The notes below the pieces were generated by a model. It was given only the letters and a program-made list of their open reading frames with translations. It was not told the origin of the DNA and ran no database searches. Both the position numbers and the translations under genes were made by a program. 64,000 bases of DNA from a candidate division WOR-3 bacterium (lineage in GTDB: Bacteria; Hydrothermota; Hydrothermia; UBA1063; CAJXJZ01): contig JALSNX010000030.1 of assembly GCA_026986775.1 (NCBI GenBank), forward strand, positions 79,483 to 143,482. Reading direction: 5' to 3'. Shown piece by piece: positions 89 through 36,094 of this stretch. The number at the start of each line of letters is the position of its first letter. Within the stretch, counting starts at the first letter, position 1.

Positions 89-2077
89 TCATGGCTTTGT
101 CCTCCTGCCAAACATTACATATAGATATTGAAACTTACTGAAGGTTTTGTCCTTACCTTTTTGGATGGGAATACCTTCTCTTTTGTTTTTACCTTTTTTA
201 GCAAGATAAACTGCAATGTCTCTGCTTAAAGCTTTTATAGTAATGTCAGGGCATTCACTGGTTTTACAGTGTATCGTAACGATAGGTTTACCTTCTCTAT
301 AATATCTTTTGAGAGAATCACATTTTAAATAAATAGTGGCCGAACTTAACATCCTATCAGAAACAAGAATGGGGCCAATTTTGCCTGAAACCTGCATTTT
401 GTAATATGCCCTGAACTTTAAACCATTTATCACTTTAATCTCAAAATCATAAGCATTCCCATGTGTATGAGAAATTTTACACAATCCTGCTTGATAAACT
501 TTATTCTTCGCTTTTCTCTCTACATCTTCCTGTGGCTTTCTTTTATCCTCTCTATAAGAAGGTTTTTTATCATTTCTTGTGTCTGGCTTTTGCTTGCGTT
601 TCTTTATTTCCTTTTCGTTTTTTGTCCTTTTCTTACGCTCTCTGTTTTTTGATTGAGGCTTTCTCTTACTTTTTTGCTCTTCTATTAAACTATTTATTAT
701 CTTTAGTAAGTGGTCCCTATCCAATACCTTTACATTTCGGGATGTTCCATTAACATCAATGTAGAGTTGCCCTGTGTTAACAGGGTAAAAGTAATATGAA
801 TATAAATCTACACTATCTTTTATGTTAAAAATGAGTTCTTTTCTCAAATACCTGAGTGTTTTCACTCCCGTTAAATCTTTTTTTGTTAATTTCTCTATAT
901 TTGATTTAATCAAGGTATCAATCAATACCGTATCGTTGTCCTTTAAGTACAACTCTCCAACTTTTAAGTTTTTCAAAAACATTATGCTATATGTATCAGG
1001 TCTTAAAGTTACTGTTTTTCCATAACTTATCTTATATTCGTTTTCACGATTCCTTAAATAGATGATATGCGAGAGTATTTTATCTTTTACCCGGACAGTG
1101 GCTGTTGGGGTGGATGTTTTGGAATAAAGATAAAGAAATAGACCTGCCCCCAGAGTAAGTAAGAGAAACAGGGATACGAAAATAAGTTTGTTCTGGTGCT
1201 TTTCTTTTTTTCTGATATACTTTTGAGTGTATGAATTTACCACTTTATCCTCTTTGAATAAGGCATCGTTAACTTTCAAAAGTATATAGGTATTGTTATC
1301 ATCACAGAGATTATCACGAATGGCATTGTCAAGATGTCCATTGAGTGTGGTTGCTACTTCTTTAAGGTTGTTTGAGTTTTCAAAAATGTTAAATAAAATG
1401 CTATGGCTAAGAAAACTCTCCCAAACACCATCTGTGCATAGTAGTATAATGTCACTTTCATTTAATAGCACAGTTCTAATGGGGGGAGAAAAATCACTCT
1501 GGGAAGCATGAAGTGAATGTTGAAGTTGGTTCTTCGCTGGATGCTGAGAAAGCTGGTCAAGGGAGAGAAGTTTCTGAGCATAGAGTTGCCATACGAGACT
1601 GTGGTCTTCTGTTAAAAGCCATAATTTTCTCTCCTTTTCAGGCAATTCTTCAGGAAGGGGAATTGCTTTATCTAACCTGTGTAATGATGGGGTAAATACA
1701 TATATTCTGGAGTCTCCTATCCATGTATAAGTAAAACTAAATTTTCCCCCTATCCCTTTCTCCAATACTCCTGCTACAACAGTGCTTCCCATATCTACAC
1801 CTGTTTCCTTGATCTTCTTAGCCGCATATTGTATACCAGTTTTTAATATTTGCTTTGCACTAAATTTTGAGGAATACTCATTGAATACTTCGTTAAGGGA
1901 TTGAACAACTATTTTACTGGCAATATCACCCTTTGAATGTCCCCCCATTCCGTCTGCAACAACAACTAATAATTTATTACCCTTTATGGATACTCCGTAT
2001 GCATCCTCTTGATACTTACGAGGACCTCTGTGATGCCTAAAATAAATGAACTTCTCCTCATTGTTACTAACTTTCAT
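89..2077 (-). CDS. PP2C-family Ser/Thr protein phosphatase, membrane-anchored, with a K/R/E-rich linker and an uncharacterized C-terminal domain
   Basis: The N-terminus carries PP2C motifs (QEDAYGV, VVVADGMGGH, ILLCTDGVWE). A transmembrane helix LIFVSLFLLLTLGAGLFLYLY follows, then a long lysine/arginine-rich low-complexity stretch and a ~150-aa C-terminal domain of unknown type. The ORF track begins at a TTG (2086). I chose the in-frame ATG at 2077, which is preceded by GAGG. It is the last gene of a minus-strand operon. Confidence 0.8.
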   Translation of the reverse strand: MKVSNNEEKFIYFRHHRGPRKYQEDAYGVSIKGNKLLVVVADGMGGHSKGDIASKIVVQSLNEVFNEYSSKFSAKQILKTGIQYAAKKIKETGVDMGSTVVAGVLEKGIGGKFSFTYTWIGDSRIYVFTPSLHRLDKAIPLPEELPEKERKLWLLTEDHSLVWQLYAQKLLSLDQLSQHPAKNQLQHSLHASQSDFSPPIRTVLLNESDIILLCTDGVWESFLSHSILFNIFENSNNLKEVATTLNGHLDNAIRDNLCDDNNTYILLKVNDALFKEDKVVNSYTQKYIRKKEKHQNKLIFVSLFLLLTLGAGLFLYLYSKTSTPTATVRVKDKILSHIIYLRNRENEYKISYGKTVTLRPDTYSIMFLKNLKVGELYLKDNDTVLIDTLIKSNIEKLTKKDLTGVKTLRYLRKELIFNIKDSVDLYSYYFYPVNTGQLYIDVNGTSRNVKVLDRDHLLKIINSLIEEQKSKRKPQSKNRERKKRTKNEKEIKKRKQKPDTRNDKKPSYREDKRKPQEDVERKAKNKVYQAGLCKISHTHGNAYDFEIKVINGLKFRAYYKMQVSGKIGPILVSDRMLSSATIYLKCDSLKRYYREGKPIVTIHCKTSECPDITIKALSRDIAVYLAKKGKNKREGIPIQKGKDKTFSKFQYLYVMFGRRTKP

Positions 2078-3515
2078 GCCCCACAACCTCTAATTTACCT
2101 TCAAATACCAGATGACCTTTTATCCTTTGGGAAAGAGATAGAATCGGATTTAAAACCTCTTTAAGTTTAGACGGAGTTACACGGATATTTACTAAATTAG
2201 CATGTGTTTGAACTGCCTCAACAAAGCTTGGCCCACTTATTTTACGCACTTTTTCTATAATCACAGCCTGTGGCAAGGTTATTATACCCCCAAATGGGCC
2301 GGGTATGTTCACGATTTTGCCTTCTTCGTATTCTATCATGGGAGCCACATAGGTGCTGTCTGTTTGAGGAAGCGGAAGTGGGATTTTAATCCTGAAAACT
2401 ACTTCATATTTTATCTTTTCTTGTTCTTGTTTCGCCTGTTGCTCTATAAGCATTGGCGATGTGTCTGTGGTTTTAGCATCTATTTGCATTTCGGACAAAG
2501 CATTCCTGAAATTATTTAAGAATTCCTCTGCATTTTTGTATCTTTCATCTATGTTAAGGGAAGTGGCTTTTTTGATAACTCTGGCTATAGGCTGTGGTAA
2601 ACCATACTTTCTTTCTGCTTGAGACACTATATCTGGAAAATTAATAGTTAATGGATTGATGCTTACTATATCCATGTAATTTTGCCAGTTCCATGTGCCA
2701 AGCCATATCTCAAATGTCAGTACTCCAAGAGAATAAATGTCAATACGTGGGTCTTTCCGATATTTTAACATATCCCGAAAATATACAGGATCAAGGTACC
2801 TGCTTGTCCCTACCAGTGAGGTTTTGCCAAAGGTTGTAGTAGTTCCCGTTGCAGATTTTGCGGTTCCGAAATCGGAAAGAACATAGTATATATTTTGCTC
2901 GCCTCTGTCCATTATGAGTATGTTTTTTAAACTCAAGTCTCTATAGACTGTGTTCATTGCATGAAGATACGAAAGGGTTTTTGCTACCTGTTTTATAATC
3001 TTAATTTTTTCTTCCACCGGGAAATTGTCCTTTCCATACTTTTGCATGAGTGCTTCAACATCGCCGTAAGCAAGTTCCATTATGTAATAGGGAAAAGTTC
3101 TCTCTTCTCCTCTGACTCTCATATGGAATTCACCATAGTCAACAATACCAACTATACCAGGATGTGAATATGAAGTTAAAATTTTTATCTCCTTTCTTAA
3201 CATCTCCTCAGATTTTTCCACTAAAGTATCATCAATAAAGGAAGCAAATTCTATCAAGGATGCAGCACTTATAGGCAACTTCAAAGCATACACACTCTGG
3301 TTTCTCGGCTCCTTAACTTTAAGAATGTAGGCGAACCCTCCCTTAGCTACTACGCCTTCTATCAAATACCTTCTATTTTTCAAAAAGATCTCTTCAAGTG
3401 GAATGTTCTTTATCCGATATAAAAAGTCTATATCTATCAGACTATTACTGCCACAATATGGGCATACTTCAAAAGTTCTGCTTATAAATCTAAAACATTT
3501 CGTGCACCTCTTCAT
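2067..3515 (-). CDS. Zn-ribbon plus divergent Ser/Thr protein kinase-like protein (possible pseudokinase or atypical kinase)
   Basis: N-terminal CxxC...CxxC zinc ribbon (CTKCF...CPYCG). The kinase fold is recognisable: Gly-rich loop AKGGFAYI, VYALKL lysine, DFG as SDFGTA. The catalytic loop reads VYRDLSLKN in place of HRDLKPEN (His to Tyr, Lys displaced). The start overlaps the upstream gene by ATGA. Confidence 0.7.
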   Translation of the reverse strand: MKRCTKCFRFISRTFEVCPYCGSNSLIDIDFLYRIKNIPLEEIFLKNRRYLIEGVVAKGGFAYILKVKEPRNQSVYALKLPISAASLIEFASFIDDTLVEKSEEMLRKEIKILTSYSHPGIVGIVDYGEFHMRVRGEERTFPYYIMELAYGDVEALMQKYGKDNFPVEEKIKIIKQVAKTLSYLHAMNTVYRDLSLKNILIMDRGEQNIYYVLSDFGTAKSATGTTTTFGKTSLVGTSRYLDPVYFRDMLKYRKDPRIDIYSLGVLTFEIWLGTWNWQNYMDIVSINPLTINFPDIVSQAERKYGLPQPIARVIKKATSLNIDERYKNAEEFLNNFRNALSEMQIDAKTTDTSPMLIEQQAKQEQEKIKYEVVFRIKIPLPLPQTDSTYVAPMIEYEEGKIVNIPGPFGGIITLPQAVIIEKVRKISGPSFVEAVQTHANLVNIRVTPSKLKEVLNPILSLSQRIKGHLVFEGKLEVVGHES

Positions 3516-4885
3516 GATAGTTCATCCTTTTTAAAGTATTTTTCTATTAAAAATACTGTGCTTCCTGTGGATAGGTATCCTCCTGCATCCAGAAGCACCT
3601 GTCTTTTACCTATGACAATGTTGTTATAGCGGGAAAGATTTCTCGGGAGGTGGCCGTTTACATCATCAGTAAAATATATATCGGTGGATTTCTTTATTAA
3701 TTTCCCGTGTATAGAAGACATCCATGGATCATTAGAAAACATTATATTTCCCTCTTTTCTTCCCACAATTAATTCCCAATTTGTTGTCCTCTTTACATCA
3801 ATAAGTATAGTTGTATGGCTGAACAGCTGAGATATACCAGGATACCTTACCACCTTAACTCCATCAGGTAGATTACTGGTTTTAACCTCATTTGCTAAAG
3901 TAATTATATGTAGCGCAACGTATTTAAATGGGCTTCCACAATGCTGGCAAAAATTCGCTGGAGGGTCTGTGGTTTTTCCACAATCCAGGCAAGTATAAGG
4001 TCCTTCTTCCACAAGCGGTGTTATGTGTTTAATTGATATACTGGATTCTGGTTTTTTCCCTAATTGTGGGCAATACTTTTGAATTAGAGTTTCGGCGAAA
4101 GGCCTTTCGTCCGGGAAAAAAGTGGTTGCTTCTATTACCAGGTCCCTTATATTCTTCGGTGATATTTTTTTGTACCAGTTCTCAAGAACTTTACTACCCT
4201 TATTGAGATATTCTGCTTTTATTGACTTATTGCACCCTGAAAAAGGCATTTCTCCTGTTACTATTACACCTATTGTCAATCCCATACTGAAAACATCGTG
4301 TAGTTTTTTCATGTTCTTTACCTGTTCTCTCGGTGAACTTCCACGAATCTTTGAGAGACGGGCACCCGCCTGCGCCGACAAATCAAACATGGGGAAGTAT
4401 TCAGGTGGCATATAACATTCCGTTCCTGCAAATGACAACCCAGTTTGACTGTCTCGCCATGAAGCCACCCCAAAATCAAGTAAAATCGGTATATTATTTT
4501 TTACCCTTATGTTTTCAGGCTTTATATCCCTGTGCACAATCCCTATACTATGTAATTGTGAAACCGCATCAACAATCCTTGCTATGAAATCTATATCCTC
4601 CGTGTTCTTATAGTAAGCAATAGGGTCATCAGGAAGGTATTCCATTACATATGCTTTTTGATCAAACATTATTTCTTTTATGTCAACAAGATACGGTATT
4701 TTATACTTCTTTCTTATCTCATTTAGTTTTGCAGCCTCTTTGAAGAATCTTTCAAGTATATACTCCCGGGTTTCCTTTGAAACTTTAATGGCATATTTTT
4801 GCCCTTCATGCTCACCAAGATACACGATTCCAAATCCCCCTGTCCCAAGAGTAGTCAATATCCTATATTTTCCTATCTTCTTCAT
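3512..4885 (-). CDS. Ser/Thr protein kinase with internal Zn ribbon and C-terminal FHA domain
   Basis: Canonical Hanks kinase motifs GTGGFGIVY, AIKV, HRDIKPEN, DFGVA and GTECYMPPE. A CLDCG...CQHCG zinc ribbon follows. The C-terminal FHA-like block has GRKEGNIMF...SSIHGKL. ATG start. The stop overlaps the downstream gene (ATGA). Confidence 0.85.
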   Translation of the reverse strand: MKKIGKYRILTTLGTGGFGIVYLGEHEGQKYAIKVSKETREYILERFFKEAAKLNEIRKKYKIPYLVDIKEIMFDQKAYVMEYLPDDPIAYYKNTEDIDFIARIVDAVSQLHSIGIVHRDIKPENIRVKNNIPILLDFGVASWRDSQTGLSFAGTECYMPPEYFPMFDLSAQAGARLSKIRGSSPREQVKNMKKLHDVFSMGLTIGVIVTGEMPFSGCNKSIKAEYLNKGSKVLENWYKKISPKNIRDLVIEATTFFPDERPFAETLIQKYCPQLGKKPESSISIKHITPLVEEGPYTCLDCGKTTDPPANFCQHCGSPFKYVALHIITLANEVKTSNLPDGVKVVRYPGISQLFSHTTILIDVKRTTNWELIVGRKEGNIMFSNDPWMSSIHGKLIKKSTDIYFTDDVNGHLPRNLSRYNNIVIGKRQVLLDAGGYLSTGSTVFLIEKYFKKDELS

Positions 4886-4893
4886 AGCACACT

Positions 4894-6897
4894 TTATTTT
4901 ATAATTTCTTCTGGTATCCTAAAACTAAGTCCATAGGTCTCATTTTCACTTCCACTAAACACTATACTTTGCTCTATAGCAACTACATTGAAGCAGGAAT
5001 CTCTAACGGATGGATTGACAATAAAGTCGGGAGAACCACTGTATCCGTGATATGTTTGTGCAAAAATTTTAACATAATCTATTTCAACATCAATAATTAA
5101 ACCTGCCGTGTGAGCTCTGGTCCAACTAGGATATCCAATAACACCTACAAAATCTCCTTCTTTAACGCTATTGGAGAGTTTAAATGGGGTTGCTACTTCC
5201 TTTGCTATTTTAGCTGGGAGTTTAAAATATGCCACGGAATCCGAATACTTTTTAAAGTCAATTCTATTAGAAAACTTCCATTCTGAAACACTTATCGGCA
5301 AGATTCGTTTCTTCACCAGTTCTTTACCTAATTCCTCTATATCTATGTCTTTTTGAAAACCCTTTGCTAACAAATCTTTTACATCTTCTGACAGGTCGGT
5401 TGGGTTATCTATATAAGTCCTGTTCAACCCTATAAAAGCAATGGCTTTGGTGTTGTCTATACCGCCAAGAACATGGGCTATTGTAATAGCATAAACTTCA
5501 CCCTTATTATTATAAGCAAAAAATCCCGTCCCAGCACTTTCCTTTATACTATCATCTTCCTGAAAAATTGTTACAATTGGAAAAACAGAAGGGATTGATT
5601 GAGTCTTTGTAAAATTATCAATATCTTTCACTATATCTCTTACCTCGTTTAATGCTTCTTTTGTTTCCCCCCTGTTACTCAATTCCTCCAGTTTCTGCTT
5701 CAATTTGTCAACCTCATTTTTTAATACCCTAATCCTTCTGTCTTTTCTACTACTCACTTGCTTCAATCTTTCAATTTCTTCCTTCTTTTTTGCTATTTCA
5801 TTCTTTACACTGTTTAAACTGTCCATGTAAGCCAGGTATGTATTTTTAAGATCGGCAATTTTGCTGTTTAAATTGGCTACATCTTTCCTATAAGAACTTA
5901 ATTTATTACTCCATGCAATAGCCTGAATCTGTGAAAACCCGCCAAAAGCAGGTATTCCAAGGAGTGCAATGACAACAAAAACCCTCATCGTGGTCTGGAG
6001 CTTTTTGTATTCGTTATGCATTAACTGGGCAGTTCTGGATACTGTTTTGGGATGGAAAATGGACTTCTTCTCAGACTCATATTCTATTTTAAAAGTGGGC
6101 CCAAATCCAGAAACAAGACTCAGTTCAGCATTATTTGGCAGTTGTGTGGCAGTAGTATAAGGTGTATTGTTAATGGCAAAAGCATACTTCTGAGCAATCG
6201 GTGTATAGAACAGAGAATTTCCAACAACCATTATCTTGCCATGTCTTCTGCTAACAACCCGCCAGTTGTCTCCCAGAACAACATCGGCCCAGTTTTTATC
6301 TCTTCCTATATTTATCTCAAATTTTTCAAATGTTTTCTCCTCCCCTTTCTGCCATTCCTGATTTACAGTATCATTTGGAATAATCTTAACCTTTACACTC
6401 ATTGCAGCCATGGAAATCGTTTTCATCAGAGATTGTGTTAATGCCTGACTTTCTGTCATGGGTTTTCCCTGTATGGTTGACCTTAATGATTTTTCCGAGC
6501 CAAGTTTGAAAATAGATGCCAGAAAAGCGAGTGCAAAAAACATTGTGGTATACAAAAGTCCAGCATAAGCATAAAGATGAGAGCCACCTTTCACAGCCAC
6601 AAGGAGTTCAGTTCCTAACAAGGCGGTTATTATGAAAAGGATGACACTTCTTATATACACGAGAGTTTTAGTCGTATGTAGAAAAAGGGTTATAAATATA
6701 ATTACAGATACCGCAATCACAATAATCCCATCAATTCTCGTAAATGCTCCTTGTGAAAATTCCTTAAGAAAGTCAAATACATTCTTCTCCGCTTGAAAAC
6801 CGTGGGAGAGAAACGCTATTAAAGACCCAGCAGGTATACGTGGCCAGTTTAAGAATAAACCAAAAAGAGCAATTAATACAAGAAACGCTGCCAGCAT
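4894..6897 (-). CDS. polytopic membrane protein with cytoplasmic FHA domain, coiled coil and C-terminal trypsin-like (S1) serine peptidase domain
   Basis: Four N-terminal hydrophobic helices. FHA signature INIGRDKNWADVVLGDNWRVVSRRHGKI. A further TM helix (VFVVIALLGIPAFGGF), then a K/E-rich coiled coil. The C-terminus has His (ITIAHVLGG) and Ser (HGYSGSP) motifs resembling TAAHC / GDSGGP of S1 proteases. It is one nucleotide from the upstream gene's stop. Confidence 0.6.
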   Translation of the reverse strand: MLAAFLVLIALFGLFLNWPRIPAGSLIAFLSHGFQAEKNVFDFLKEFSQGAFTRIDGIIVIAVSVIIFITLFLHTTKTLVYIRSVILFIITALLGTELLVAVKGGSHLYAYAGLLYTTMFFALAFLASIFKLGSEKSLRSTIQGKPMTESQALTQSLMKTISMAAMSVKVKIIPNDTVNQEWQKGEEKTFEKFEINIGRDKNWADVVLGDNWRVVSRRHGKIMVVGNSLFYTPIAQKYAFAINNTPYTTATQLPNNAELSLVSGFGPTFKIEYESEKKSIFHPKTVSRTAQLMHNEYKKLQTTMRVFVVIALLGIPAFGGFSQIQAIAWSNKLSSYRKDVANLNSKIADLKNTYLAYMDSLNSVKNEIAKKKEEIERLKQVSSRKDRRIRVLKNEVDKLKQKLEELSNRGETKEALNEVRDIVKDIDNFTKTQSIPSVFPIVTIFQEDDSIKESAGTGFFAYNNKGEVYAITIAHVLGGIDNTKAIAFIGLNRTYIDNPTDLSEDVKDLLAKGFQKDIDIEELGKELVKKRILPISVSEWKFSNRIDFKKYSDSVAYFKLPAKIAKEVATPFKLSNSVKEGDFVGVIGYPSWTRAHTAGLIIDVEIDYVKIFAQTYHGYSGSPDFIVNPSVRDSCFNVVAIEQSIVFSGSENETYGLSFRIPEEIIK

Positions 6898-6898
6898 T

Positions 6899-7900
6899 TT
6901 ATTCCTCCTGTATTGTTTTTATATGCAGTTTTGCTTCAACAGGAACTCCATTTTTCTTCACAATCCTAATGATGGTGTTATTATCAAGAATCACGGGGTC
7001 TTCCTTTATCTCAACGTAAAAGCTCTTCCCACTTAAAGGAACCAGATACCATGAACCATTGGTTAAAGGCTGAACTTTTAAATGATGTTTTGAAACTCCA
7101 CTTTGAGCAAGTATCAATTCTTCAATTTGCAATAGTTCCATAAGAGTCTCTCTACCCAGAATAAATTCCCAATTTACCGTTAATATATCGTTTTTCCCCG
7201 GCATGTTTAATACCCTTATTCGTGGTTTCCCGGTGGTGAAAATATTAAATACATCTTCACCAGGACCGGCCATTACCGTTTTAATCTCATTAGTCTCTTG
7301 CATCATATCTTTGTGTTCTGCTGAACCAAGTAGCTGAAACCCCACTGCTCCAAGATAAAACTCTGTTCCACTCAAAACAATAAGTCCTTTATTGTATTTG
7401 ACAAAGAGTTTACCCTCCGTTTGAGAACTGATTTTTCTAATCATTACCTTTGGATAAAGTGTAGAGTTGTATACCATAAAGGCAAAACCCTCAAATGCTC
7501 CCACACCAGCAAAAAACGGCTCGCACTTTTTAAGTAATACATTCCCTTCAAGATTATCGTAATTAGATGACTGCCACTCAAACTCAATTTTCATTGACGA
7601 TTTTTCTTCTGTTTCATAACTTCTCACTTCCTCTATTTGTTGTTGAGCAGGCATCAGTGGAAACCCACAGAACTTGCAGAAACTTGCTTCAGGGGGATTC
7701 TCTTTTCCACATTTTGGACATTTAATTCCCTTCCCACCAATATTAGATAACTTTTTATGCCTTATTCCCTCTTCCACAGACACTGACAGAGATGTTTCAG
7801 CAGGAAATTCATATCCACAGACAGGGCACTTATCCAGGCCCTCTTTTACGAATGACCCACATTGTGGACACCTTCTTCCCAAAAGAGTTGATCCTTCCAT
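6899..7900 (-). CDS. double zinc-ribbon protein with C-terminal FHA-like domain
   Basis: Two CxxC-N-CxxC ribbons (CPQCG...CPVCG; CPKCG...CKFCG). A divergent FHA-like C-terminus has ILGRE...VSKHHLKV...NNTIIRI. A strong RBS (GGAGG) sits 6 nt before the ATG. Confidence 0.55.
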   Translation of the reverse strand: MEGSTLLGRRCPQCGSFVKEGLDKCPVCGYEFPAETSLSVSVEEGIRHKKLSNIGGKGIKCPKCGKENPPEASFCKFCGFPLMPAQQQIEEVRSYETEEKSSMKIEFEWQSSNYDNLEGNVLLKKCEPFFAGVGAFEGFAFMVYNSTLYPKVMIRKISSQTEGKLFVKYNKGLIVLSGTEFYLGAVGFQLLGSAEHKDMMQETNEIKTVMAGPGEDVFNIFTTGKPRIRVLNMPGKNDILTVNWEFILGRETLMELLQIEELILAQSGVSKHHLKVQPLTNGSWYLVPLSGKSFYVEIKEDPVILDNNTIIRIVKKNGVPVEAKLHIKTIQEE

Positions 7901-7914
7901 GTTTACCTCCTCTT

Positions 7915-9159
7915 CTATTTTTTATTTAATAATGCAATTGCAAAAACATCGTTTTTCTGGCGAGCAATGTCCAGTGGACTCTTGCCATATTTGTTTTTTA
8001 TATTAGGTTTTGCTCCAGCCAAAATGAGCTTCTTTATAATGTCATAATTACCCTGTAAAACAGCATAGTGCAGTGGTGTGTTTCCATCCATATCTGCAAT
8101 ATTCGGGTCTGCTCCGTTTAAAAGTAGTGCTTTCACAGAATACCCAGAGCCGTGCAAAGAAGCAATATGCAGTCCCGTTCTCCCATATTTATCTTTCCAC
8201 GCCACATCAAAATCATTTATCAAGTGAGAGACTTTATCTGTATCATCATCAAAGAAAGAAGAAAACAAAGGAACCCAGGCATATTCATTTTTTACCGTAG
8301 AATCACTGTGATAAAGTATAAAATCAACACTCCAGTAATGCCTGTGTTTCCATGCATAATCTATGGGGGAAAGACCATTACTATCCCTTTTACACTCAGG
8401 ATTAAACTGTAAAATCTTAATTAAAAAGGATGAATCTTCCTGCATTGCTGCATAATGCAGTGCTGTTTTTCCATATCTATCCCCATTATTTATAGCGTCG
8501 CTAATACCCTTAAACTTCTTTAACATATAAACAAAAATTGGGTAATCACCCATTTTTATACTTAACATAAATGGAGTCATACCAACATCATTAGAAATAC
8601 TCACAGACGCTCCATTTTCCATAAGTAACACAGCCAAATCATCTCTTTTATTTCTTATGGCCATATACAGCGGTGTATAGCCTTCCAGATTGAATGTGTC
8701 CCAGTTAAACTTACTCACTGAGGATAGAAATACCAAGACACCACGAAAATTTCCGGCATCCACCATAGTATGGAGCACATTATTACCATAGGTATCTTTC
8801 AGGGTAAAATCAGCACCATTATTCAGAAGGTATATAAAGACATTGATAAGGTTAGAGTCCTTTGCTGCATAAAACAATGGTGTCTGATTGTTTTTATCAG
8901 TGATATTGATATCTGCTCCACGCTTAATAAGAAAATCTACAACTCTGATATTTCCGCATTTAACTGCAACATGAAGCAGTGAAGGATTAAAATACCCATT
9001 ATAAAAACTGAACTTGTAATCAGGTCCAACAACATACAGAAAACTGTCAAGGACTGAAATATTACCCTCTGTTATTGACGAATATAACACTCTTTCTTCT
9101 TCTCTGTCACCAAGAGAATTTCCCTCAAGTAGGGCAAGAAAAAGTATTAAAACCAGCAT
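7915..9159 (-). CDS. secreted ankyrin-repeat protein
   Basis: N-terminal signal-like peptide MLVLILFLALLEGNSLG. It contains at least 8 ankyrin repeats (e.g. GNTPLHYAVLQGNYDIIKKLILAGAKPN, GRTGLHIASLHGSGYSVKALLLNGADPN). AGGAGG RBS. It ends 14 nt before the next minus-strand gene, so it is probably co-transcribed with the FHA/kinase/PP2C genes. Confidence 0.85.
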   Translation of the reverse strand: MLVLILFLALLEGNSLGDREEERVLYSSITEGNISVLDSFLYVVGPDYKFSFYNGYFNPSLLHVAVKCGNIRVVDFLIKRGADINITDKNNQTPLFYAAKDSNLINVFIYLLNNGADFTLKDTYGNNVLHTMVDAGNFRGVLVFLSSVSKFNWDTFNLEGYTPLYMAIRNKRDDLAVLLMENGASVSISNDVGMTPFMLSIKMGDYPIFVYMLKKFKGISDAINNGDRYGKTALHYAAMQEDSSFLIKILQFNPECKRDSNGLSPIDYAWKHRHYWSVDFILYHSDSTVKNEYAWVPLFSSFFDDDTDKVSHLINDFDVAWKDKYGRTGLHIASLHGSGYSVKALLLNGADPNIADMDGNTPLHYAVLQGNYDIIKKLILAGAKPNIKNKYGKSPLDIARQKNDVFAIALLNKK

Positions 9160-9304: not shown

Positions 9305-9358
9305 CCCGAAGGTGACATAAAAAGTAATTGTTCCAATCTTTAATAGATAATATAGATA

Positions 9359-9394
9359 AAGAGCCCCTTCGTTACAATGAAGGGGCTCTTTTTG
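9359..9394 (-). terminator. GC-rich hairpin immediately after the stop of the lipoprotein gene (bidirectional intrinsic terminator candidate)
   Basis: agagcccctt...aaggggctct forms a 10-bp stem. The plus strand has TTTTT. The minus strand has TTTATCTATATT. It is followed by the promoter region of the ankyrin operon. Confidence 0.55.
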
Positions 9395-10901: not shown

Positions 10902-11744
10902 TTATTTATTCTTAACACTCTCAAGATACTCTACCACGTCTTCATGCTCCATATCTCTGGCATAATCAAGAGGAGTTTTACCATCATTATCCTTCACATT
11001 CACCTCTGCTCCATTGGAGATTAAATACTTAACTACTTCTATGTGACCATTCTGGGCTGCATAATGTAGTGGGGTCTTACCATCGCCGTCTTTCACATTT
11101 AAATCTTCCCCTGTTGAATCAAGTAAATACTTGACTATGTCCAGATGTCCTTTTTCAGCTGCGAGGTGAAGAGGGGTATAAGTCGAGTCCACTTCATCAT
11201 TGTAAAATTTACCTCCGCGCTCAATGAAGTATTTCGCAATTTCAAAATTGCCATAATATATTGCATAATAGAGAGGAGTGGCGTTGTCATAATATTCACT
11301 CGTGCCTATAGCGTTTATATCGGCGCCATGGTCAAGGAGAACTTTTGCCACATCAATTTTTCCATACTTGGCTGCTACATGTAGAGGTGTTTGCCCTTCA
11401 ATATTCTCACTACCTATATTTGCTCCATTAATGATTAAATACTCTGCTATTTTTGGAAAACCATATTCAGCAGCCATGTGAAGAGGCGTGTTTCCCTGAC
11501 TATCCTCTATGTTGACATCAGCTCCAGAATTTATCAAGTATTTTACAACGTCTAAATTACCACCCATGACCGCATAATGAAGTAGTGACCATTCCCTCAT
11601 CATTGAAGTGTCTCTGGTATTTACATCCACCCCACTTTCCACAAGCCTTCTTACTTCCTCTATATTACCTTCTTTTGCTGCACTGAATATGTCTCCACTT
11701 ACCTGTGTTACAAGCAATATGTATCCAAGTATGGCTCCTATCAT
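10902..11744 (-). CDS. ankyrin-repeat protein with N-terminal hydrophobic signal/anchor
   Basis: At least 7 ankyrin repeats (GNTPLHMAAEYGFPKIAEYLIINGANI, GKTPLHYAAQNGHIEVVKYLISNGAEVN and others). N-terminus MIGAILGYILLVTQVSG. AAGGAGG RBS 7 nt before the ATG. Confidence 0.85.
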   Translation of the reverse strand: MIGAILGYILLVTQVSGDIFSAAKEGNIEEVRRLVESGVDVNTRDTSMMREWSLLHYAVMGGNLDVVKYLINSGADVNIEDSQGNTPLHMAAEYGFPKIAEYLIINGANIGSENIEGQTPLHVAAKYGKIDVAKVLLDHGADINAIGTSEYYDNATPLYYAIYYGNFEIAKYFIERGGKFYNDEVDSTYTPLHLAAEKGHLDIVKYLLDSTGEDLNVKDGDGKTPLHYAAQNGHIEVVKYLISNGAEVNVKDNDGKTPLDYARDMEHEDVVEYLESVKNK

Positions 11745-20842: not shown

Positions 20843-23800
20843 ATGAAAAGGTTAATTGTAATACTCTTCATGGTATCACTACTCAAAGCCCAGAACTTCG
20901 GGGATGTTATCCTTGAGGATACCTTTGGGCTATATACTCCGGGTTCCGGGAATGGGGTAGCATGGGATGATCATGATAACACGGTAATCATAGCAGGTTA
21001 TAAAAGGGCTCATGGTTCGGCTGTAAAAAAAGGATGGCTTATTAAATATGACCCGTTAAGTGATGATACGATCTGGAGCAGGTTCTATGGCAATTATAAG
21101 TATGACTTTTTCAACGATGTGGCTTATGATCCTTCGGGGTATTATGTGGCAGTGGGTGCTTCAGCTACATCTTCAAGTGTTGATTTCTGGATTTTGAAAC
21201 TGACTACTGATGGAAATGTTGAATGGCAGGGAATATACGGGAATCCTTCGCTTTATGATGAAGCAAAGGCAGTTACGCTTGATAGTGCTGGTGATTATGT
21301 TGTGGTGGGATATGAAAGAGATTCAGACGGTGTAGATAAAGCGGCGATTTTAAAGATAGATGCTAACACTAATGATACTGTGTGGACAAGAGTTTACAAT
21401 ACACCGGACACGAGCCGTCTTTATGATGTTTTCATTGACCCCAATGGATATTATGTAGGGGTTGGAGAGATTTACGAGGCAGGATACGGATGGAAAATGG
21501 CGCTTTGGGTGATAGCACCTAACAATGGTGACATTGTGGGCGGAGATGAATACGGCACAAGTGGGAGCAATCACAGGGGCCGCTGTGGCCTTATGAGTTC
21601 TGATAACAACTTCATTATTGCAGGCTATACGGATGTAAATGGCGACAAAGACTATGAAATTTTGAAAATAAAATATTCCGACTTTAGTGTTATATGGGAT
21701 AGCACTTATGCTATCAGCGGAGATCAGGAGGCATGGGAGATAACGAGAATAAATGAGGATGTTTATGTTGGAGGGTACTCTTCGGAAAAAGGAAATAAAG
21801 ATGGCTTTATGATGGTAATAGACGATGGATTTGGCAGAGTTGTAGATATGGACCTTAATGGTTTATCTGATGTTGATGACTGGGAAAAAAGTGTCGTCGT
21901 GTATCAGGATACCATCCTCAGTGTGGGTGGAAGCGAAAATGAGCATCTTCTTACACATATAAGGCATTCCCAGAATATCAGAGACAGTCATCTAAAAGAC
22001 CTGTCTCTGCGTATAGGTTATGAGGATAGAGCATATGCCATTGCCATTGATTCTTCTGGAAATTACATTATAGTGGGAAATACCCATTCGCCCGATGATG
22101 CAGACCACTGGCAGATACTGGCTGTAAAATACGACCCTGTACAGGATAGAGTTTTATGGTGGAAAGTTTACAGTCAGAGATGGGGGGACAGTAAAGCCAA
22201 TAAAGTTATTGTTGATAGAGACGGATATTATGCTATAGCGGGTTATACTGTAAACTCTTCGGGAAATAAAGACGTATGGGTTTTGAAACTCAATCCCAAT
22301 ACGGGTGATACTGTGTGGACAGGGGTCTTTGGTGGTGACAGTGACGAAGTTGCAATGGACATAATAGAGGATTTAAACGGTGATTATGCAGTTGCAGGTT
22401 ATACTACATCTTATGGTGCAGGCCGGGAGGATGGCTGGCTTTTGGTGCTTAATGCTTCAACGGGAGATACTCTTTATACAAAAACATACGGTGGTTCCGA
22501 GTATGATGTATTTAACGCAATAGCAGAGGATAATGGTTATTACATTCTGGCAGGTGTATCTTCCGAACTGCACGGGTGGGGTGATGACTGGATTTTAAAG
22601 GTTGATGCTCAAAATGGGGATACTGTGTGGCAAAGATACTATGGGGACCAAGAGGGTCAGATTGCCTATGATGTTATTGTGGATAGAGACGGTAACTATG
22701 TGGTAGGTGGTAAAACATATACAAATTCCACCCAAGATGATGTCTGGGTTTTAAAGATAGAGAGCGATAGCGGTGACACAATATGGACAAAGTCCTACGG
22801 AGGCTCAGATTCAGAAAGAGGCTTCAGCATAAGAGAGGATAAGGAGGGCTTTTATGTGATAGCAGGTTTCACAAGGTCATATGGTGCAGGCTCGTCAGAT
22901 TACTGGGCTTTAAAACTTGACCCCGAAAATGGTGCTACGCTGGGCCAAAAAACCTTCGGTGGTACAGGGGATGACATGGCAGAGTGTGTATCAGTGGATG
23001 ACAGCAACCATTATGTCATAACAGGTTTCTCCAATTCCACCACTACAGGTGGTTATGATTTTTACACCGTAAAAATATATCAGGGCGATAACCTCCCGCC
23101 AGTGTTTGATTCAATAACGCAACTTCCTAATGACACAACCCTGCCATTCGGGCCCTATCAGGTGGATGTTAAAATAACGGATAATCTTTCGGGGGTTGAC
23201 AGAGGCAGGCTGTACTGGAAGTCATCCGAAGATGCTGATTTTTCCTACAGTTCTTTGACATACAATACTAACAACTGGTGGGGTGCAAGTATTTCGGAGA
23301 TAAACATTACAGGAGATAGTGCCCTCGTCTATTATTATGTTGATGCTTATGATTCCGCAGGAAATTATGGAGTATCGGATACTCTCAGTTTCTGGGTCAT
23401 AAAGCCCGACACGGAGCCACCTTTAATAGATTCTCTTACACAGGTGGATAAAGACACAACCATTCCTCATGGCCCTTATGAAGTAAGGGTAAAGGCATGG
23501 GATGAATATAGGGGCGTAAACAATGTTCGTCTTTACTGGAAGGATGAGGCATCAAGTACATTTACGGAGAGTTTCATGGACAGTCTCGGTGGTGACTGGT
23601 GGGTAGATTCCATACCGGAGCAGGTATTAAACAACGACAGCACGGTGATTTACTACTATGTTATAGCAGAGGACAATGCTGGCAATACGAGTTATTCGGA
23701 TACCATTTCATTTCGGGTAATAGACCCTGACACAACGGTGCCTCAAATAGATTCATTAACACAACTTGAAAAAGACACCACCATACCGCATGGACCCTAC

Positions 23801-26800
23801 GAGGTTATGGTGAAGGCATGGGATAATTATAAAGGCATGGGCAATGTTGAGTTCTACTGGAAGAGCGCAGGAGATACTGTATTCACCGAGAGTTTCATGG
23901 ACAGTCTCGGTGGTGACTGGCGGATAGATTCCATACCGGAGCAGGTATTAAACAACGACAGCACAGTTATTTACTACTATGTTATAGCAGAGGACAATGC
24001 AGGCAATACGACTTATTCAGATACCCTTTCATTCTGGGTAATAGACCCGGATACAACTATACCTCTTGTGGATAATCTCACACAACTTGAAAAAGATACA
24101 ACCATACCGCATGGCCCCTATGAAATCAAGGTGGAGGGCTATGACAATTACAAGGGCCTTAATAGTGTAAAACTTTACTGGCGAAGAAATACAGATACTG
24201 TTTTTAATGAAAGTTCCATGATTGATTATGATTCAACACATTACTGGGTAGACTCTATACCTGAACAGGTACTTAATAACGATAGTGTTGAGATTTATTA
24301 CTATGTAATGGCGGAGGATGTGGGTGGCAACCGTGCGTACACGGATACCCTCTCTTTCTGGGTAATAGACCCTGACACAACGGTGCCTCAAATAGATTCA
24401 TTAACACAACTTGAAAACGACACCACCATACCGCATGGACCCTACGAGGTTAAGATAAAGGCATGGGATGATTATAAGGGTATGGGCAATATGAAGTTTT
24501 ACTGCAAGAGCGCGGAGGATACTGTATTCACAGAGAGTTTCATGGATAGTCTTGGTGGTAACTGGTGGGTGGATACGATACCGGAAGAGGTATTAAACAA
24601 CGACAGCACAGAGATTTATTACTATGTTATAGCAGAAGACAATGCGGGCAATACGAGTTATTCGGACACCCTCTCTTTCTGGGTAATAGACCCCGACACA
24701 ACAGTGCCAGAGATAGATTCATTAACGCAAATTGAAAAAGACACCACCATACCGCATGGACCCTACGAGGTTAAGGTGAAGGCATGGGACGATTATAAAG
24801 GCATATCAAATGTTAAGTTCTACTGGAAAAATGATGCATCTGGAACATTTACGGAGAGTTTCATGGACAGTCTCGGTGGTAATTGGTGGGTGGATTCCAT
24901 ACCTGAGCAGGTATTAAACAACGACAGCACAATAATTTATTACTATGTTGTAGCCGAAGATATAGGCGGCAATATTACCTGTTCGGATACCTTGAGTTTC
25001 TGGGTAATAGACCCCGACACCTTACCACCTGAAATTGACTCACTCACGAAGGTTTTAAGCGATACTACCTTACCTTTTGGACCCTATGAGGTTAAGGTGA
25101 AGTCATGGGATGAGTATGGTAGTATTCAGGATGTAAAATTCTACTGGAAAAACGATACAATGTCTGATTTCACAGTGGGGAATATGGCATATCTGGGTGG
25201 GGATTGGTGGGTAGATTCTATACCACAGCAGGAATTTGCCGCCGACAGTATGTCTATTCTTTACTATGTGGTATCAGAGGATAGTGCAGGCAATTCAACC
25301 ATAACAGATACCATGAGTTTCTGGATGGTAAAGCCCGACACGGAGCCACCTTTAATAGATTCTCTCACGCAGGTGGATAAAGACACGACAATACCTCATG
25401 GTCCTTATGAAATAAGGGTAAAGGCATGGGATGAGTACAGGGGCGTAAGCAATGTTCGTCTTTACTGGAAGGATGACACATCAAGTACATTTACGGAGAG
25501 TTTCATGGACAGTCTCGGTGGTGACTGGTGGATAGATTCCATACCGGAGCAGATATTAAACAACGACAGCACAGTTATTTATTACTATGTTATAGCCGAG
25601 GACAATGCCGGTAATACGAGTTATTCGGATACCATTTCATTCTGGGTAGTAGACCCTGATACAACAGTACCACAGATAGATTCAGTGACACAGCTTGAAA
25701 GAGACAATAACCCACCTTACGGGCCATATGATGTATGGAGCAAGGTAAAAGATGAATACAGGGGACTTGCTGATGTTGAACTCTACTGGAAAAAGGAATC
25801 CCAGCCGGCATTCATACAGGTTTCTATGTCAGGGACTTCAGATGACTGGTGGTACGGTAGTATACCCGAGCAGACGCTTGATACTGATAGCATAAGAATT
25901 GTTTACTATGTAAAAGCAACCGATCTGGGAGGAAATACTTCATATTCTGATACTTTGAGTTTCTACATAGTAAAACCCGATACCATGGCTCCTCAGATAG
26001 ATTCCCTTACACAGGTTGATAACGACTCAACCGCTCCTTATGGTCCCTATGAAGTCAGAGTGAAGGTGACAGACCTTTACAAGAAAGCAGGAAGTCTATT
26101 TGGTAAAGGTGTGTTAAAAGACATAAAGGACAAGGAGACATCACAAGTGAAACTCTACTGGAAACTGGAGACAGAGGCCGTTTTCAACGAAAACAGTATG
26201 GCTTATCTTGGTAACAACTGGTGGATAGACAGCATTCCAGAGGAGAGTTTCAGCACAGATAGCGTAAGAGTTCTTTATTATGTGAGTGCCATGGATGATG
26301 CCGGTAATACTTCATATTCGGATACCCTGTCATTCTGGCTTATAAAACTTGATACCGTAAAACCTGTAATAGATACGGTTACACAGATTGAAAGGGATTC
26401 GGTGCCTCCTTATGGCCCCTATGAGGTATGGGTAAATGCCACAGATAACAAAGGAGTAAAATACACAAGGCTTTACTGGAAAAGGGCATCTCAGCCGGCA
26501 TTTGTTCAGATTGATATGAACCATGCAGCAGGGAACTGGTGGGTTGATAGTATTCCAGAGCAGACACTCAATCAGGATAGCGTATTGATACTATACTACG
26601 CTGAAGCAGTTGATTCTTCGGGCAATACATGTATTTCGGACACATTGGGGTTCTGGATTGTAAGCCCTGATACAATGCCGCCTGTGATAGATTCCCTTGC
26701 TCAGATTGAAAATGATACAATGCCACCCTATGGCCCTTATGAAGTTAGAGTAAAAGTTACAGATAGTAGAAAAGGACAGGTTGTTTTCGGCATTTATAAA

Positions 26801-28009: not shown

Positions 28010-28024
28010 GGAAAACTAAGCAAA

Positions 28025-28052
28025 CAGAGCCCCCATATAAGGGGGCTCTTTA
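28025..28052 (+). terminator. intrinsic terminator candidate after the 2388-aa gene
   Basis: agagccccc-atataa-gggggctct hairpin followed by TTTACTGTTTTA. Confidence 0.55.
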
Positions 28053-28060
28053 CTGTTTTA

Positions 28061-28149
28061 TGACACATTGCTGTGACATGAATGGTCACAGTTTAACATG
28101 TTGTTATGTAAGGAGTTTAATTCTGGGGTGTGACATGGAGTTATGACAT
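28061..28149 (+). promoter_or_regulatory. second cluster of GTGACAT-type sites (inverted repeat CTGTGAC-N7-GTCACAG; direct GTGTGACATG / ATGACAT)
   Basis: The sequence tgacacattgCTGTGACatgaatgGTCACAG lies at 28061-28091. The sequence GTGTGACATGgagttATGACAT lies at 28128-28149. These share their half-site with the 17767-17866 cluster. The cluster sits about 60-150 nt upstream of a sigma-54-like promoter. Confidence 0.5.
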
Positions 28150-28210
28150 TTTGAGTATTGATTTTATTGGTTTTAAAGGTGTTGGTTGTAAATCAATAAC
28201 TTATGTACTA

Positions 28211-28225
28211 TGGCTTGAAAATTGC
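28211..28225 (+). promoter_or_regulatory. sigma-54-type -24/-12 promoter candidate, TGGCTT-N5-TTGC
   Basis: tggcttgaaaattgc has GG and GC at exactly the consensus spacing, with two mismatches in the -24 hexamer. The GC is 27 nt upstream of the ATG at 28252, which has an AAAGGAGG RBS. Confidence 0.5.
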
Positions 28226-28251
28226 CGTAATACTGCAAAAGGAGGTTTTTT

Positions 28252-36034: not shown

Positions 36035-36094
36035 GGGGCCCTCCGGCTTCCCCCCACACGATACCCATCTTTCGGAGGGCCCTTCTTTTTTATT
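36035..36094. terminator. bidirectional intrinsic terminator between convergent genes
   Basis: ggggccctccg...cggagggccc forms a 10-bp GC stem with a long loop. It is followed by TTCTTTTTTATT on the plus strand and by an A/T-rich run on the minus strand. It sits between the stops of the 35804 ORF and the sigma-54 activator gene. Confidence 0.6.

Follow-up and report, generated by a model that had tools for sequence, protein, structure and literature searches.

A membrane protein with FHA and predicted serine protease domains encoded in a kinase and phosphatase operon of a candidate division WOR-3 bacterium

Introduction

Hanks-type Ser/Thr kinases and FHA domains form bacterial signaling systems that act on targets in the cytoplasm and govern how some envelope machines are assembled. 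In the regulated proteolysis of the envelope, as carried out by DegS/RseP and HtrA, the trigger comes from outside the cell. DegS is a protease of the chymotrypsin fold that is anchored in the inner membrane, faces the periplasm, and acts in signaling; proteases of this type serve as sensors in the envelope, and a scaffolding role is filled by FHA proteins of the membrane, such as FhaA and FipA of mycobacteria. To our knowledge, neither the mycobacterial FHA, kinase, and PP2C systems nor the PpkA-PppA-Fha1 system carries a protease on the FHA protein. Here, we describe a gene located at positions 4894..6897 of the minus strand of a 64,000-nucleotide stretch of DNA (the window) from a candidate division WOR-3 bacterium (assembly GCA_026986775.1, contig JALSNX010000030.1, positions 79,483 to 143,482). 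Its product, referred to as the target protein, combines an FHA domain with a predicted serine protease domain and is encoded together with two Ser/Thr kinases and a PP2C phosphatase. If the protein does join a cytoplasmic phosphothreonine (pThr) reader to a periplasmic serine protease, it would link the fields of Hanks/FHA signaling and envelope proteolysis and would provide direct pThr control of extracytoplasmic proteolysis.

Results

The gene is an open reading frame (ORF) of 667 amino acids that starts with ATG, ends with a TAA stop codon at 4894-4896, and is preceded by an AGGAGG ribosome-binding site 7 nucleotides 5' of the ATG. The plus-strand reading of 4894-6897 was rejected because this frame is full of stops. 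The minus-strand ORF is a real gene rather than a chance ORF, since homologues matching 94 to 100% of its length occur in four metagenomic lineages, which also keep the gene order. These four close homologues display 35 to 38% identity in BLASTP comparisons and 38 to 40% in a MAFFT alignment. They were the only clade members retrieved by a word-indexed search of 5.8 billion proteins, whereas an exhaustive hidden Markov model (HMM) search of 1.84 billion representatives gave 117 matches at E ≤ 1e-3. The clade of the target protein (the window clade) contains 13 full-length representatives at 50% identity, i.e., the four close homologues and nine more. Homologue P0003 originates from a candidate division WOR-3 metagenome-assembled genome (MAG), and its locus was the only one detected in a scan of genome contigs.

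From the N terminus to the C terminus, the target protein comprises four transmembrane (TM) helices, an FHA domain, a fifth TM helix (TM5), a coiled coil, and a chymotrypsin-fold domain. We consider it highly probable that this architecture, and the family placement described below, are correct. All coordinates of its parts refer to the minus strand. The N-terminal four-TM block (residues 1 to 132; 6502..6897) was defined by Kyte-Doolittle hydropathy, with segments at about residues 1 to 17, 55 to 73, 84 to 102, and 108 to 131; it had no credible Pfam match at E ≤ 10 and no relationship to MotA/ExbB. It is followed by a Ser/Thr-rich juxtamembrane linker (residues 133 to 165; 6403..6501) modeled with low pLDDT. 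The linker motif, GSxKSLxSTxxGxP(M)(S/T)ESQALTQ, is conserved in the 13 representatives, in which G133, S134, S140, T141, G144, P146, and E149 are invariant or nearly so; the linker is a candidate phospho-acceptor or FHA ligand. The FHA domain occupies residues 166 to 277 (6067..6402). TM5 (residues 303 to 329; 5911..5991) is supported by hydropathy and by the conserved motif FVVIAxLGIPxFG. The coiled-coil stalk that follows (residues 330 to 437; 5587..5910) had been predicted from the sequence, and this prediction holds: the segment displays a heptad pattern with hydrophobic residues at 19 of the 30 a and d positions in the best frame, is approximately 40% charged, was modeled by AlphaFold2 (AF2) as a continuous long helix, and gave many coiled-coil matches in Pfam and NCBIfam. 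Its length is 108 residues in the target protein and 108 to 162 in the homologues. The remainder of the protein (residues 438 to 667; 4897..5586) is the serine peptidase domain, identified by AF2 modeling, Foldseek, and profile comparison with the PDB. The mean pLDDT of the full-length AF2 model was 62.6. The NCBIfam scan returned coiled-coil noise only for the target protein and generic kinase and PP2C matches for its neighbors.

The original prediction located an FHA signature between two sets of TM helices. The quoted motif is present (GRDKNWADVVLGDNWRVVSRRHGKI, residues 198 to 222), hydropathy agrees with the arrangement, and AF2 and Foldseek supported the fold. The Pfam score (PF00498, 21.4 bits) was marginally above the cutoff of 20.7 bits, with scores of 28.2 and 25.9 bits for clade relatives P0010 and P0013. 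The AF2 model of residues 135 to 299, built from a four-sequence alignment, had a mean pLDDT of 79, and its best 50 Foldseek matches in the PDB were all FHA-containing chains. These included GarA, OdhI, CT664, FhaA, Ki67, DgcB, ArnA, and YscD/PscD, with target TM-scores of up to 0.85, a root mean square deviation of about 2 Å, and E values down to 2e-7; the closest folds were those of GarA, OdhI, and FhaA. Modeling thus confirmed the predicted FHA fold despite the marginal Pfam score. None of the residues G198, R199, S216, and H219 varies among the 13 full-length representatives. They belong to the G-R and S-x-x-H loops, which we take to hold the phosphate in FHA domains, and the predicted phosphate-binding residues are R199 (6301-6303), S216 (6250-6252), and H219 (6241-6243).

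The two motifs on which the assignment of a trypsin-like domain had been based, TIAHVL (residues 472 to 477) and GYSGSP (residues 618 to 623), were both found, in the order typical of S1 proteases. In the target protein, Trypsin_2 (PF13365) scored 20.1 bits (E = 1.2e-3), below the cutoff of 27.6 bits; it independently matches three of the four close members and reaches threshold in clade members P0006 (33.1 bits) and P0013 (33.5 bits). The low score of the target protein therefore reflects divergence rather than absence of the domain. In the AF2 model, residues 438 to 667 had a pLDDT of about 80, and the best 50 Foldseek matches in the PDB were all PA-clan proteases, including the trypsin-like domain of IgA1 protease (E = 3e-7), HtrA1, Esp/V8, DegP/DegQ/DegS, and SplA to SplF, with target TM-scores of 0.5 to 0.6 for single-domain targets. 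A profile of the C-terminal domain was needed for sequence comparison with the PDB because the single-sequence search gave only noise-level matches (SplB, E = 0.28). With the profile, SplD was matched at an E value of 4e-4 and the His, Asp, and Ser motifs were aligned: GTGF…AHV on GTGF…NKHV, DSVAYFKLP on D-IAVVQV, and GYSGSP on GSSGSP. The putative triad consists of H475 (5473-5475), D553 (5239-5241), and S620 (5038-5040). All three residues are invariant in the four closest homologues; in P0005, P0006, and P0013 to P0015, the His and Ser are retained and an Asp is found at or next to the D553 column. The spacing between His and Asp is long, at 78 residues, because of a helical insertion of about 60 residues in the AF2 model (approximately residues 493 to 529). 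Pfam scans of the four close members detected no PDZ domain, and the target protein ends 47 residues past the catalytic Ser. Thus, modeling confirmed that the C-terminal domain is a predicted chymotrypsin-fold serine protease with an intact putative triad, as the original prediction had anticipated.

One subclade of homologues, P0007 to P0010, has GFTGGY, RDNSGL, GFPGGP, and RFHGGF in place of the catalytic motifs. To judge from these sequences, this is a pseudoprotease subclade, indicating that some members do without catalysis.

Most of the remaining HMM matches are proteins of 490 to 610 amino acids that contain an N-terminal FHA domain, one TM helix, a coiled coil, and a C-terminal domain with a GxSGxP motif. 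In this sister family, Pfam scores reach 61 bits for FHA, and Trypsin_2 or Trypsin is above threshold. A search from a single seed retrieved at least 1,127 clusters at 90% identity, nearly all matching both PF00498 and PF13365, from sources such as Runella zeae, Phaeodactylibacter xiamenensis, and MAGs of Bacteroidales and Chitinophagales. The names automatically given to these proteins include "FHA domain-containing protein," "FHA domain/Trypsin," and "FHA protein/V8-like Glu-specific endopeptidase." Database matches of this kind indicate that FHA and trypsin domains are often combined and that automated annotation has already captured this. When the two families were compared by hhalign, the probability was 99.9% (E = 3.2e-33) over 464 collinear columns, extending from residue 148 to 648 of the query and 11 to 515 of the template and covering the pre-FHA segment, the FHA domain, the TM helix, the coiled coil, and the protease domain. 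TM5 of the target protein aligns with the single TM helix of the Bacteroidota family, whose members lack the four-TM block. The triad is kept in 22 of 22 sampled members of the sister family, and the GR, SRxH, and TNPT/NG motifs of the FHA domain are invariant.

The description of the target protein as an unusual fusion was therefore overstated, in view of the at least 1,127 Bacteroidota clusters that combine FHA with Trypsin_2; what is rare is the four-TM block together with the sequence divergence. The accompanying remark that the combination is not known from characterized systems stands, since a literature search, thin on subscription journals, found no characterized example. Three candidate papers, PMC7159879, PMC13584744, and PMC12428579, were not relevant to an FHA and serine protease architecture.

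As for topology, we infer that the FHA domain is in the cytoplasm and that the protease domain is outside, in the periplasm. With only one hydrophobic span between them, the well-conserved TM5, the two domains should lie on opposite sides of the membrane. Neither the two kinases nor the zinc-ribbon FHA protein encoded in the same operon (see below) has a TM segment by hydropathy, which places the pThr chemistry in the cytoplasm. In the Bacteroidota homologues, a soluble FHA domain begins at about residue 40 without a signal peptide and is followed by one TM helix and then by the protease domain; this FHA-first, single-TM layout likewise argues for an FHA domain inside and a protease outside. 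The four additional helices of the target protein are even in number, which fits the orientation of the Bacteroidota homologues. A split paralogous pair adjoins the fused gene of homologue P0002 at locus L003 (2987-5647) and is also found at L005. It consists of a 588-amino-acid trypsin-like protease with a signal-peptide-like N terminus and a 287-amino-acid protein combining four TM helices with an FHA region that closely resembles that of the fused proteins; P0017 and P0019 are proteins of a similar kind. The presence of a signal peptide on the protease of this pair points to the same orientation. The cytoplasmic location of the FHA domain, whose failure would have undermined the proposal of regulation across the membrane, thus fits TM5 as a divider, the soluble kinases, the layout of the sister family, and the split paralogue.

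Three very large plus-strand surface-type proteins are encoded within 20843-35802 and 51073-55689 of the window. They comprise a 2,388-amino-acid protein with Big_3_4/Big_13 domains, a 2,516-amino-acid protein with FG-GAP repeats, and a 1,538-amino-acid protein with Cleaved_Adhesin/MAM domains, the latter two displaying weak C-terminal matches to Por_Secre_tail, the sorting signal of the type IX secretion system. Since the window encodes Por_Secre_tail proteins, a diderm cell with a periplasm, membership of the FCB group, and type IX secretion are indicated.

Six closely spaced genes of the minus strand, with gaps of 14, 1, 8, -4, and -20 nucleotides between them, include the target gene in third position. 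A terminator-like hairpin with a 13-bp stem (9358..9391, minus strand) ends the upstream gene and marks the 5' boundary of the operon. The first gene (7915..9159) encodes a 414-amino-acid ankyrin-repeat protein (Ank_2, 243 bits) with a hydrophobic N terminus. The second (6899..7900), located 1 nucleotide from the target gene, encodes a 333-amino-acid protein in which Pfam detected two zinc ribbons and a C-terminal FHA domain and which has no TM helix. Downstream of the target gene, 3512..4885 encodes STK457, a Hanks-type Ser/Thr kinase of 457 amino acids (Pkinase, 102 bits) that also has a zinc ribbon and, at its C terminus, an FHA-like region. Pfam did not confirm this FHA-like region; the best match of STK457 is a Runella kinase with an FHA domain. 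The next gene (2067..3515) overlaps the preceding one by 4 nucleotides and encodes a second Ser/Thr kinase, STK482, of 482 amino acids (Pkinase, 94.7 bits) with an N-terminal zinc ribbon. The last gene (89..2086) encodes a PP2C phosphatase of 665 amino acids (PP2C_2, 53.6 bits; Stp1_PP2C, 119.8 bits) composed of an N-terminal phosphatase domain, one TM helix (residues 299 to 322), and a tail of about 340 residues for which no Pfam family match was obtained. The module as a whole thus brings together two kinases and one phosphatase with two FHA domains confirmed by Pfam and one protease, and its only membrane-spanning members are the target protein and the PP2C.

The block formed by the target gene, the two kinase genes, and the PP2C gene recurs at all four close-homologue loci. 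The zinc-ribbon protein gene lies directly upstream of the target homologue wherever the contig extends (L001 to L006 and L008), and equivalents of the ankyrin gene are found in L001, L002, L005, and L006, heading the operon in two lineages. In the sister family, the operons encode a zinc-ribbon protein, a Ser/Thr kinase with an FHA domain, the FHA-protease, a protein of about 311 amino acids, a PP2C, and a second Ser/Thr kinase; these partners show weak orthology to those of the window. For the unannotated genes that lie downstream of these operons in Runella and Phaeodactylibacter, Pfam gave no match.

A Pfam scan of every ORF of at least 200 amino acids in the 64-kb window revealed no core gene for a type VI secretion system (T6SS), a type III secretion system (T3SS), or another secretion machine. 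Likewise, Pfam detected no T6SS or T3SS gene among the three that separate the operon from valS, and no secretion-machine core gene was found in the scanned ORFs of loci L001 to L008. Known defense systems were not found by PADLOC. At two Bacteroidota loci (L011, 15213-16713; L012, 11964-13470), a gene for TssR (PF17643/PF20782), a component of the T6SS-iii membrane complex, lies two genes after a homologous operon with the order kinase, kinase, FHA-protease, two other genes, and PP2C. This adjacency is confined to one Bacteroidota lineage; the other four groups of Bacteroidota-type loci that were examined did not show it. In Phaeodactylibacter xiamenensis (L017, 9242-9997), a gene of the MotA_ExbB family (251 amino acids) lies upstream of the FHA-TM-protease gene with a gap of 3 nucleotides.

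Several features of the neighboring genes were recorded. In the translation of STK482, the catalytic loop (residues ~190 to 200) reads YRDLSLKN instead of the canonical HRDLKPEN, with the Lys shifted by two positions, and recalls loops of the HRDLAARN type, as in tyrosine kinases. In the PP2C (89-1100, minus strand), the tail past the TM helix contains at residues ~470 to 535 a low-complexity stretch extremely rich in Lys, Arg, and Glu (…KSKRKPQSKNRERKKRTKNEKEIKKRKQKPDTRNDKK…), which would be unusual if the tail were periplasmic. Two ankyrin proteins encoded on the minus strand of the window, namely, the 414-residue product of the first gene of the operon and a 280-residue protein (10902-11744), have hydrophobic, signal-peptide-like N termini, and a 145-amino-acid ankyrin gene lies just past the left edge of the window in L001. 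If exported, the ankyrin proteins would be candidates for partners of the protease in the periplasm, or for its substrates. A second, separate pThr module is located at 36093-40426 (minus strand). It is formed by an 831-amino-acid Hanks kinase with TPR repeats (37931-40426) and the adjoining gene (36093-37931) for a 612-amino-acid protein containing FHA (74 bits), GAF, sigma-54 AAA+ activator, and HTH_8 domains, suggesting pThr control of a sigma-54 enhancer-binding protein.

Discussion

In the reading that we prefer, the target protein would be a polytopic inner-membrane protein whose N terminus and FHA domain are cytoplasmic, in which TM5 would carry the chain outside and the stalk of about 108 residues would hold the serine protease in the periplasm. 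It would be the membrane-spanning component of a six-gene pThr module. The operon kinases would phosphorylate Thr residues of their own, of partner FHA proteins, or of the Ser/Thr-rich linker of the target protein, and the PP2C would remove these marks. With the linker as the acceptor, the arrangement would be akin to the cis pThr-FHA switch of GarA and OdhI. The FHA domain would dock on the pThr sites, and docking would change the association of TM5 and the coiled-coil stalk, thereby controlling the activity or the assembly of the periplasmic protease and coupling cytoplasmic Thr phosphorylation to envelope proteolysis. In this scheme, we infer not only the topology but also pThr binding, catalytic activity, the direction of signaling, and the substrates. 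Taken as a whole, a pThr-coupled, membrane-tethered periplasmic protease is the best explanation of the locus, and we regard the chances that it is right as evenly balanced. The phospho-coupled mechanism in particular is put forward tentatively, our confidence falling somewhat short of even. Phosphorylation-gated proteolysis across the membrane, as proposed in the original prediction, is nonetheless a reasonable hypothesis, which the conserved kinase and PP2C operon strengthens.

Several observations weigh against this reading. The operon encodes no obvious substrate or transcriptional output, and the literature search mentioned above, with its thin coverage of subscription journals, found no experimental study of any member. 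Similar numbers of Lys and Arg residues flank the TM helices on either side, so that the orientation cannot be read from the positive-inside rule alone. The Pfam scores of the target protein are marginal, and the sequence profile of the FHA region had no match in the PDB at E ≤ 1, which is why the identity of that domain was settled by the fold search. The Asn of the canonical FHA S-x-N-G-T motif does not appear to be conserved in the window clade: QKYAF stands in place of the motif, and the clade carries Q/R/F/K-K/N-Y-A/S-F at this position, whereas N98 is invariant in the Bacteroidota sister family. If so, pThr binding may be weakened and peptide recognition may be atypical. Finally, subclade P0007 to P0010 has lost the catalytic His and Ser and has kept the C-terminal domain, so that the conserved role of this domain may be binding rather than catalysis.

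This last observation would be expected if information flowed from the outside inward. The periplasmic protease-like domain would then bind a ligand or peptide, or cleave itself or a partner once, and the output would be phosphorylation: the cytoplasmic FHA domain would recruit the soluble kinases and the zinc-ribbon FHA protein to the membrane, and information from the envelope would set the level of phosphorylation. Because the kinases have neither a TM helix nor an extracytoplasmic sensor domain, a signal from the envelope could enter only by way of the target protein or the PP2C, and the subclade that keeps the C-terminal domain without its catalytic residues behaves as expected of a binding module. 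The triad is, however, strictly kept in the target protein, its nearest relatives, and all of the sampled Bacteroidota members (22/22), which speaks for a catalytic role in most lineages, and the Pfam scans revealed neither a PDZ nor another known sensing domain. We view such a sensor or scaffold as a doubtful but serious candidate. The apparently degenerate NG position raises a different issue, as do the marginal Pfam score and the lack of a sequence-level PDB match for the FHA profile, since all three could be accounted for by an FHA domain that acts independently of phosphorylation, as a general module for protein-protein contacts, like some FHA-like domains of the T3SS and the type VII secretion system. 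The target protein would then be a constitutive, tethered housekeeping or quality-control protease, and the kinases and PP2C would act elsewhere. This is improbable, because R199 and S216, which contact phosphate, and H219 are invariant in 13 diverged representatives, because the FHA domain of the Bacteroidota sister family is fully canonical, with Pfam scores reaching 61 bits, and because the linkage to two kinases and a PP2C is kept across both families.

The target protein might instead regulate or anchor a large envelope machine, in the manner of PpkA/PppA/Fha1 in the T6SS or YscD in the T3SS, with the protease processing a component. The TssR gene adjoining the homologous operon in one Bacteroidota lineage (L011 and L012), the MotA_ExbB gene directly upstream of the Phaeodactylibacter homologue, and a weak Yop-YscD_cpl match in the target protein (24.6 bits) are in keeping with such a role. 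The Yop-YscD_cpl score is nevertheless below the cutoff of 33.2 bits, the scanned ORFs of at least 200 amino acids include no secretion-machine core gene in the window or in L001 to L008, and the Runella, Phaeodactylibacter, L010, and L014 loci contain no recognizable T6SS genes by the operon. We therefore give little credence to this role.

Returning to the pThr-coupled protease, the FHA-TM-coiled coil-proteases of the FCB group, from Bacteroidota to WOR-3-like lineages, might form an uncharacterized inside-out class, in which pThr would switch a periplasmic serine protease and the four-TM block would provide a second, membrane-embedded input; this generalization is speculative and, in our estimate, rather unlikely to hold in full. 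The domain combination itself is not new. What is new is the conserved operon-level module, the rare clade extended by four TM helices, and the pseudoprotease subclade. An operon-level module that is spread over FCB lineages and may perform pThr-coupled periplasmic proteolysis is of experimental interest, and the abundance of the sister family in cultivable Bacteroidota (Runella, Phaeodactylibacter) opens the hypothesis to genetics even though the organism of the window is uncultured.

Among known systems, YscD and PrgH of the T3SS follow the same topological logic as that proposed for the target protein, with an FHA-like domain inside, one TM helix, and a folded domain outside; unlike in these proteins, the periplasmic part of the target protein is a predicted protease rather than a set of ring-building domains, and no T3SS genes were found in the scanned ORFs. 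The mycobacterial fhaA-fhaB(fipA)-pstP-pknA-pknB cluster and the PpkA-PppA-Fha1 module of the T6SS associate FHA domains with Ser/Thr kinases and a PP2C, as observed here, and the PP2C of the window is, as in those modules, a membrane protein with a tail beyond its TM helix. They differ from the window, in which the scanned ORFs contained no cell wall synthesis or T6SS genes.

With respect to the protease domain, the staphylococcal S1B enzymes (SplA to SplF and V8/Esp) are the nearest relatives by sequence, and their fold also matches, at an identity of only ~15 to 18%. These enzymes are small and secreted, have no membrane anchor, coiled coil, or FHA domain, and are unlike the target domain with its helical His-Asp insertion of ~60 residues. 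The fold of the HtrA family (DegS/DegP/DegQ and HtrA1; S1C) also matches the domain (Foldseek E values of ~1e-5). Like DegS, the target protein would be a membrane-tethered protease facing the periplasm, but it has no PDZ domain, which defines the HtrA family, and its anchor combines polytopic TM helices, an FHA domain, and a coiled coil in place of one N-terminal TM helix.

The closest relative overall is the Bacteroidota family of FHA-1 TM-coiled coil-Trypsin_2/Trypsin proteins (~490 to 600 amino acids), which is collinear with the target protein from the pre-FHA segment on, shares its His/Asp/Ser triad and long His-Asp insertion, and is encoded in operons of the same content (zinc-ribbon protein, kinase with an FHA domain, PP2C, and second kinase). 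The gene order differs in the window, where the ankyrin gene heads the operon. Members of the Bacteroidota family are bitopic, with a soluble N-terminal FHA domain, a layout from which the target protein departs by its additional four-TM block, its apparently degenerate FHA NG position, and its much weaker Pfam scores. Against the more than 1,100 clusters of that family at 90% identity, the window clade has 13 representatives at 50% identity. Sequence and profile comparisons thus define the target protein as a rare, divergent sister variant, extended by four predicted TM helices, of a large Bacteroidota FHA-TM-coiled coil-Trypsin_2 family.

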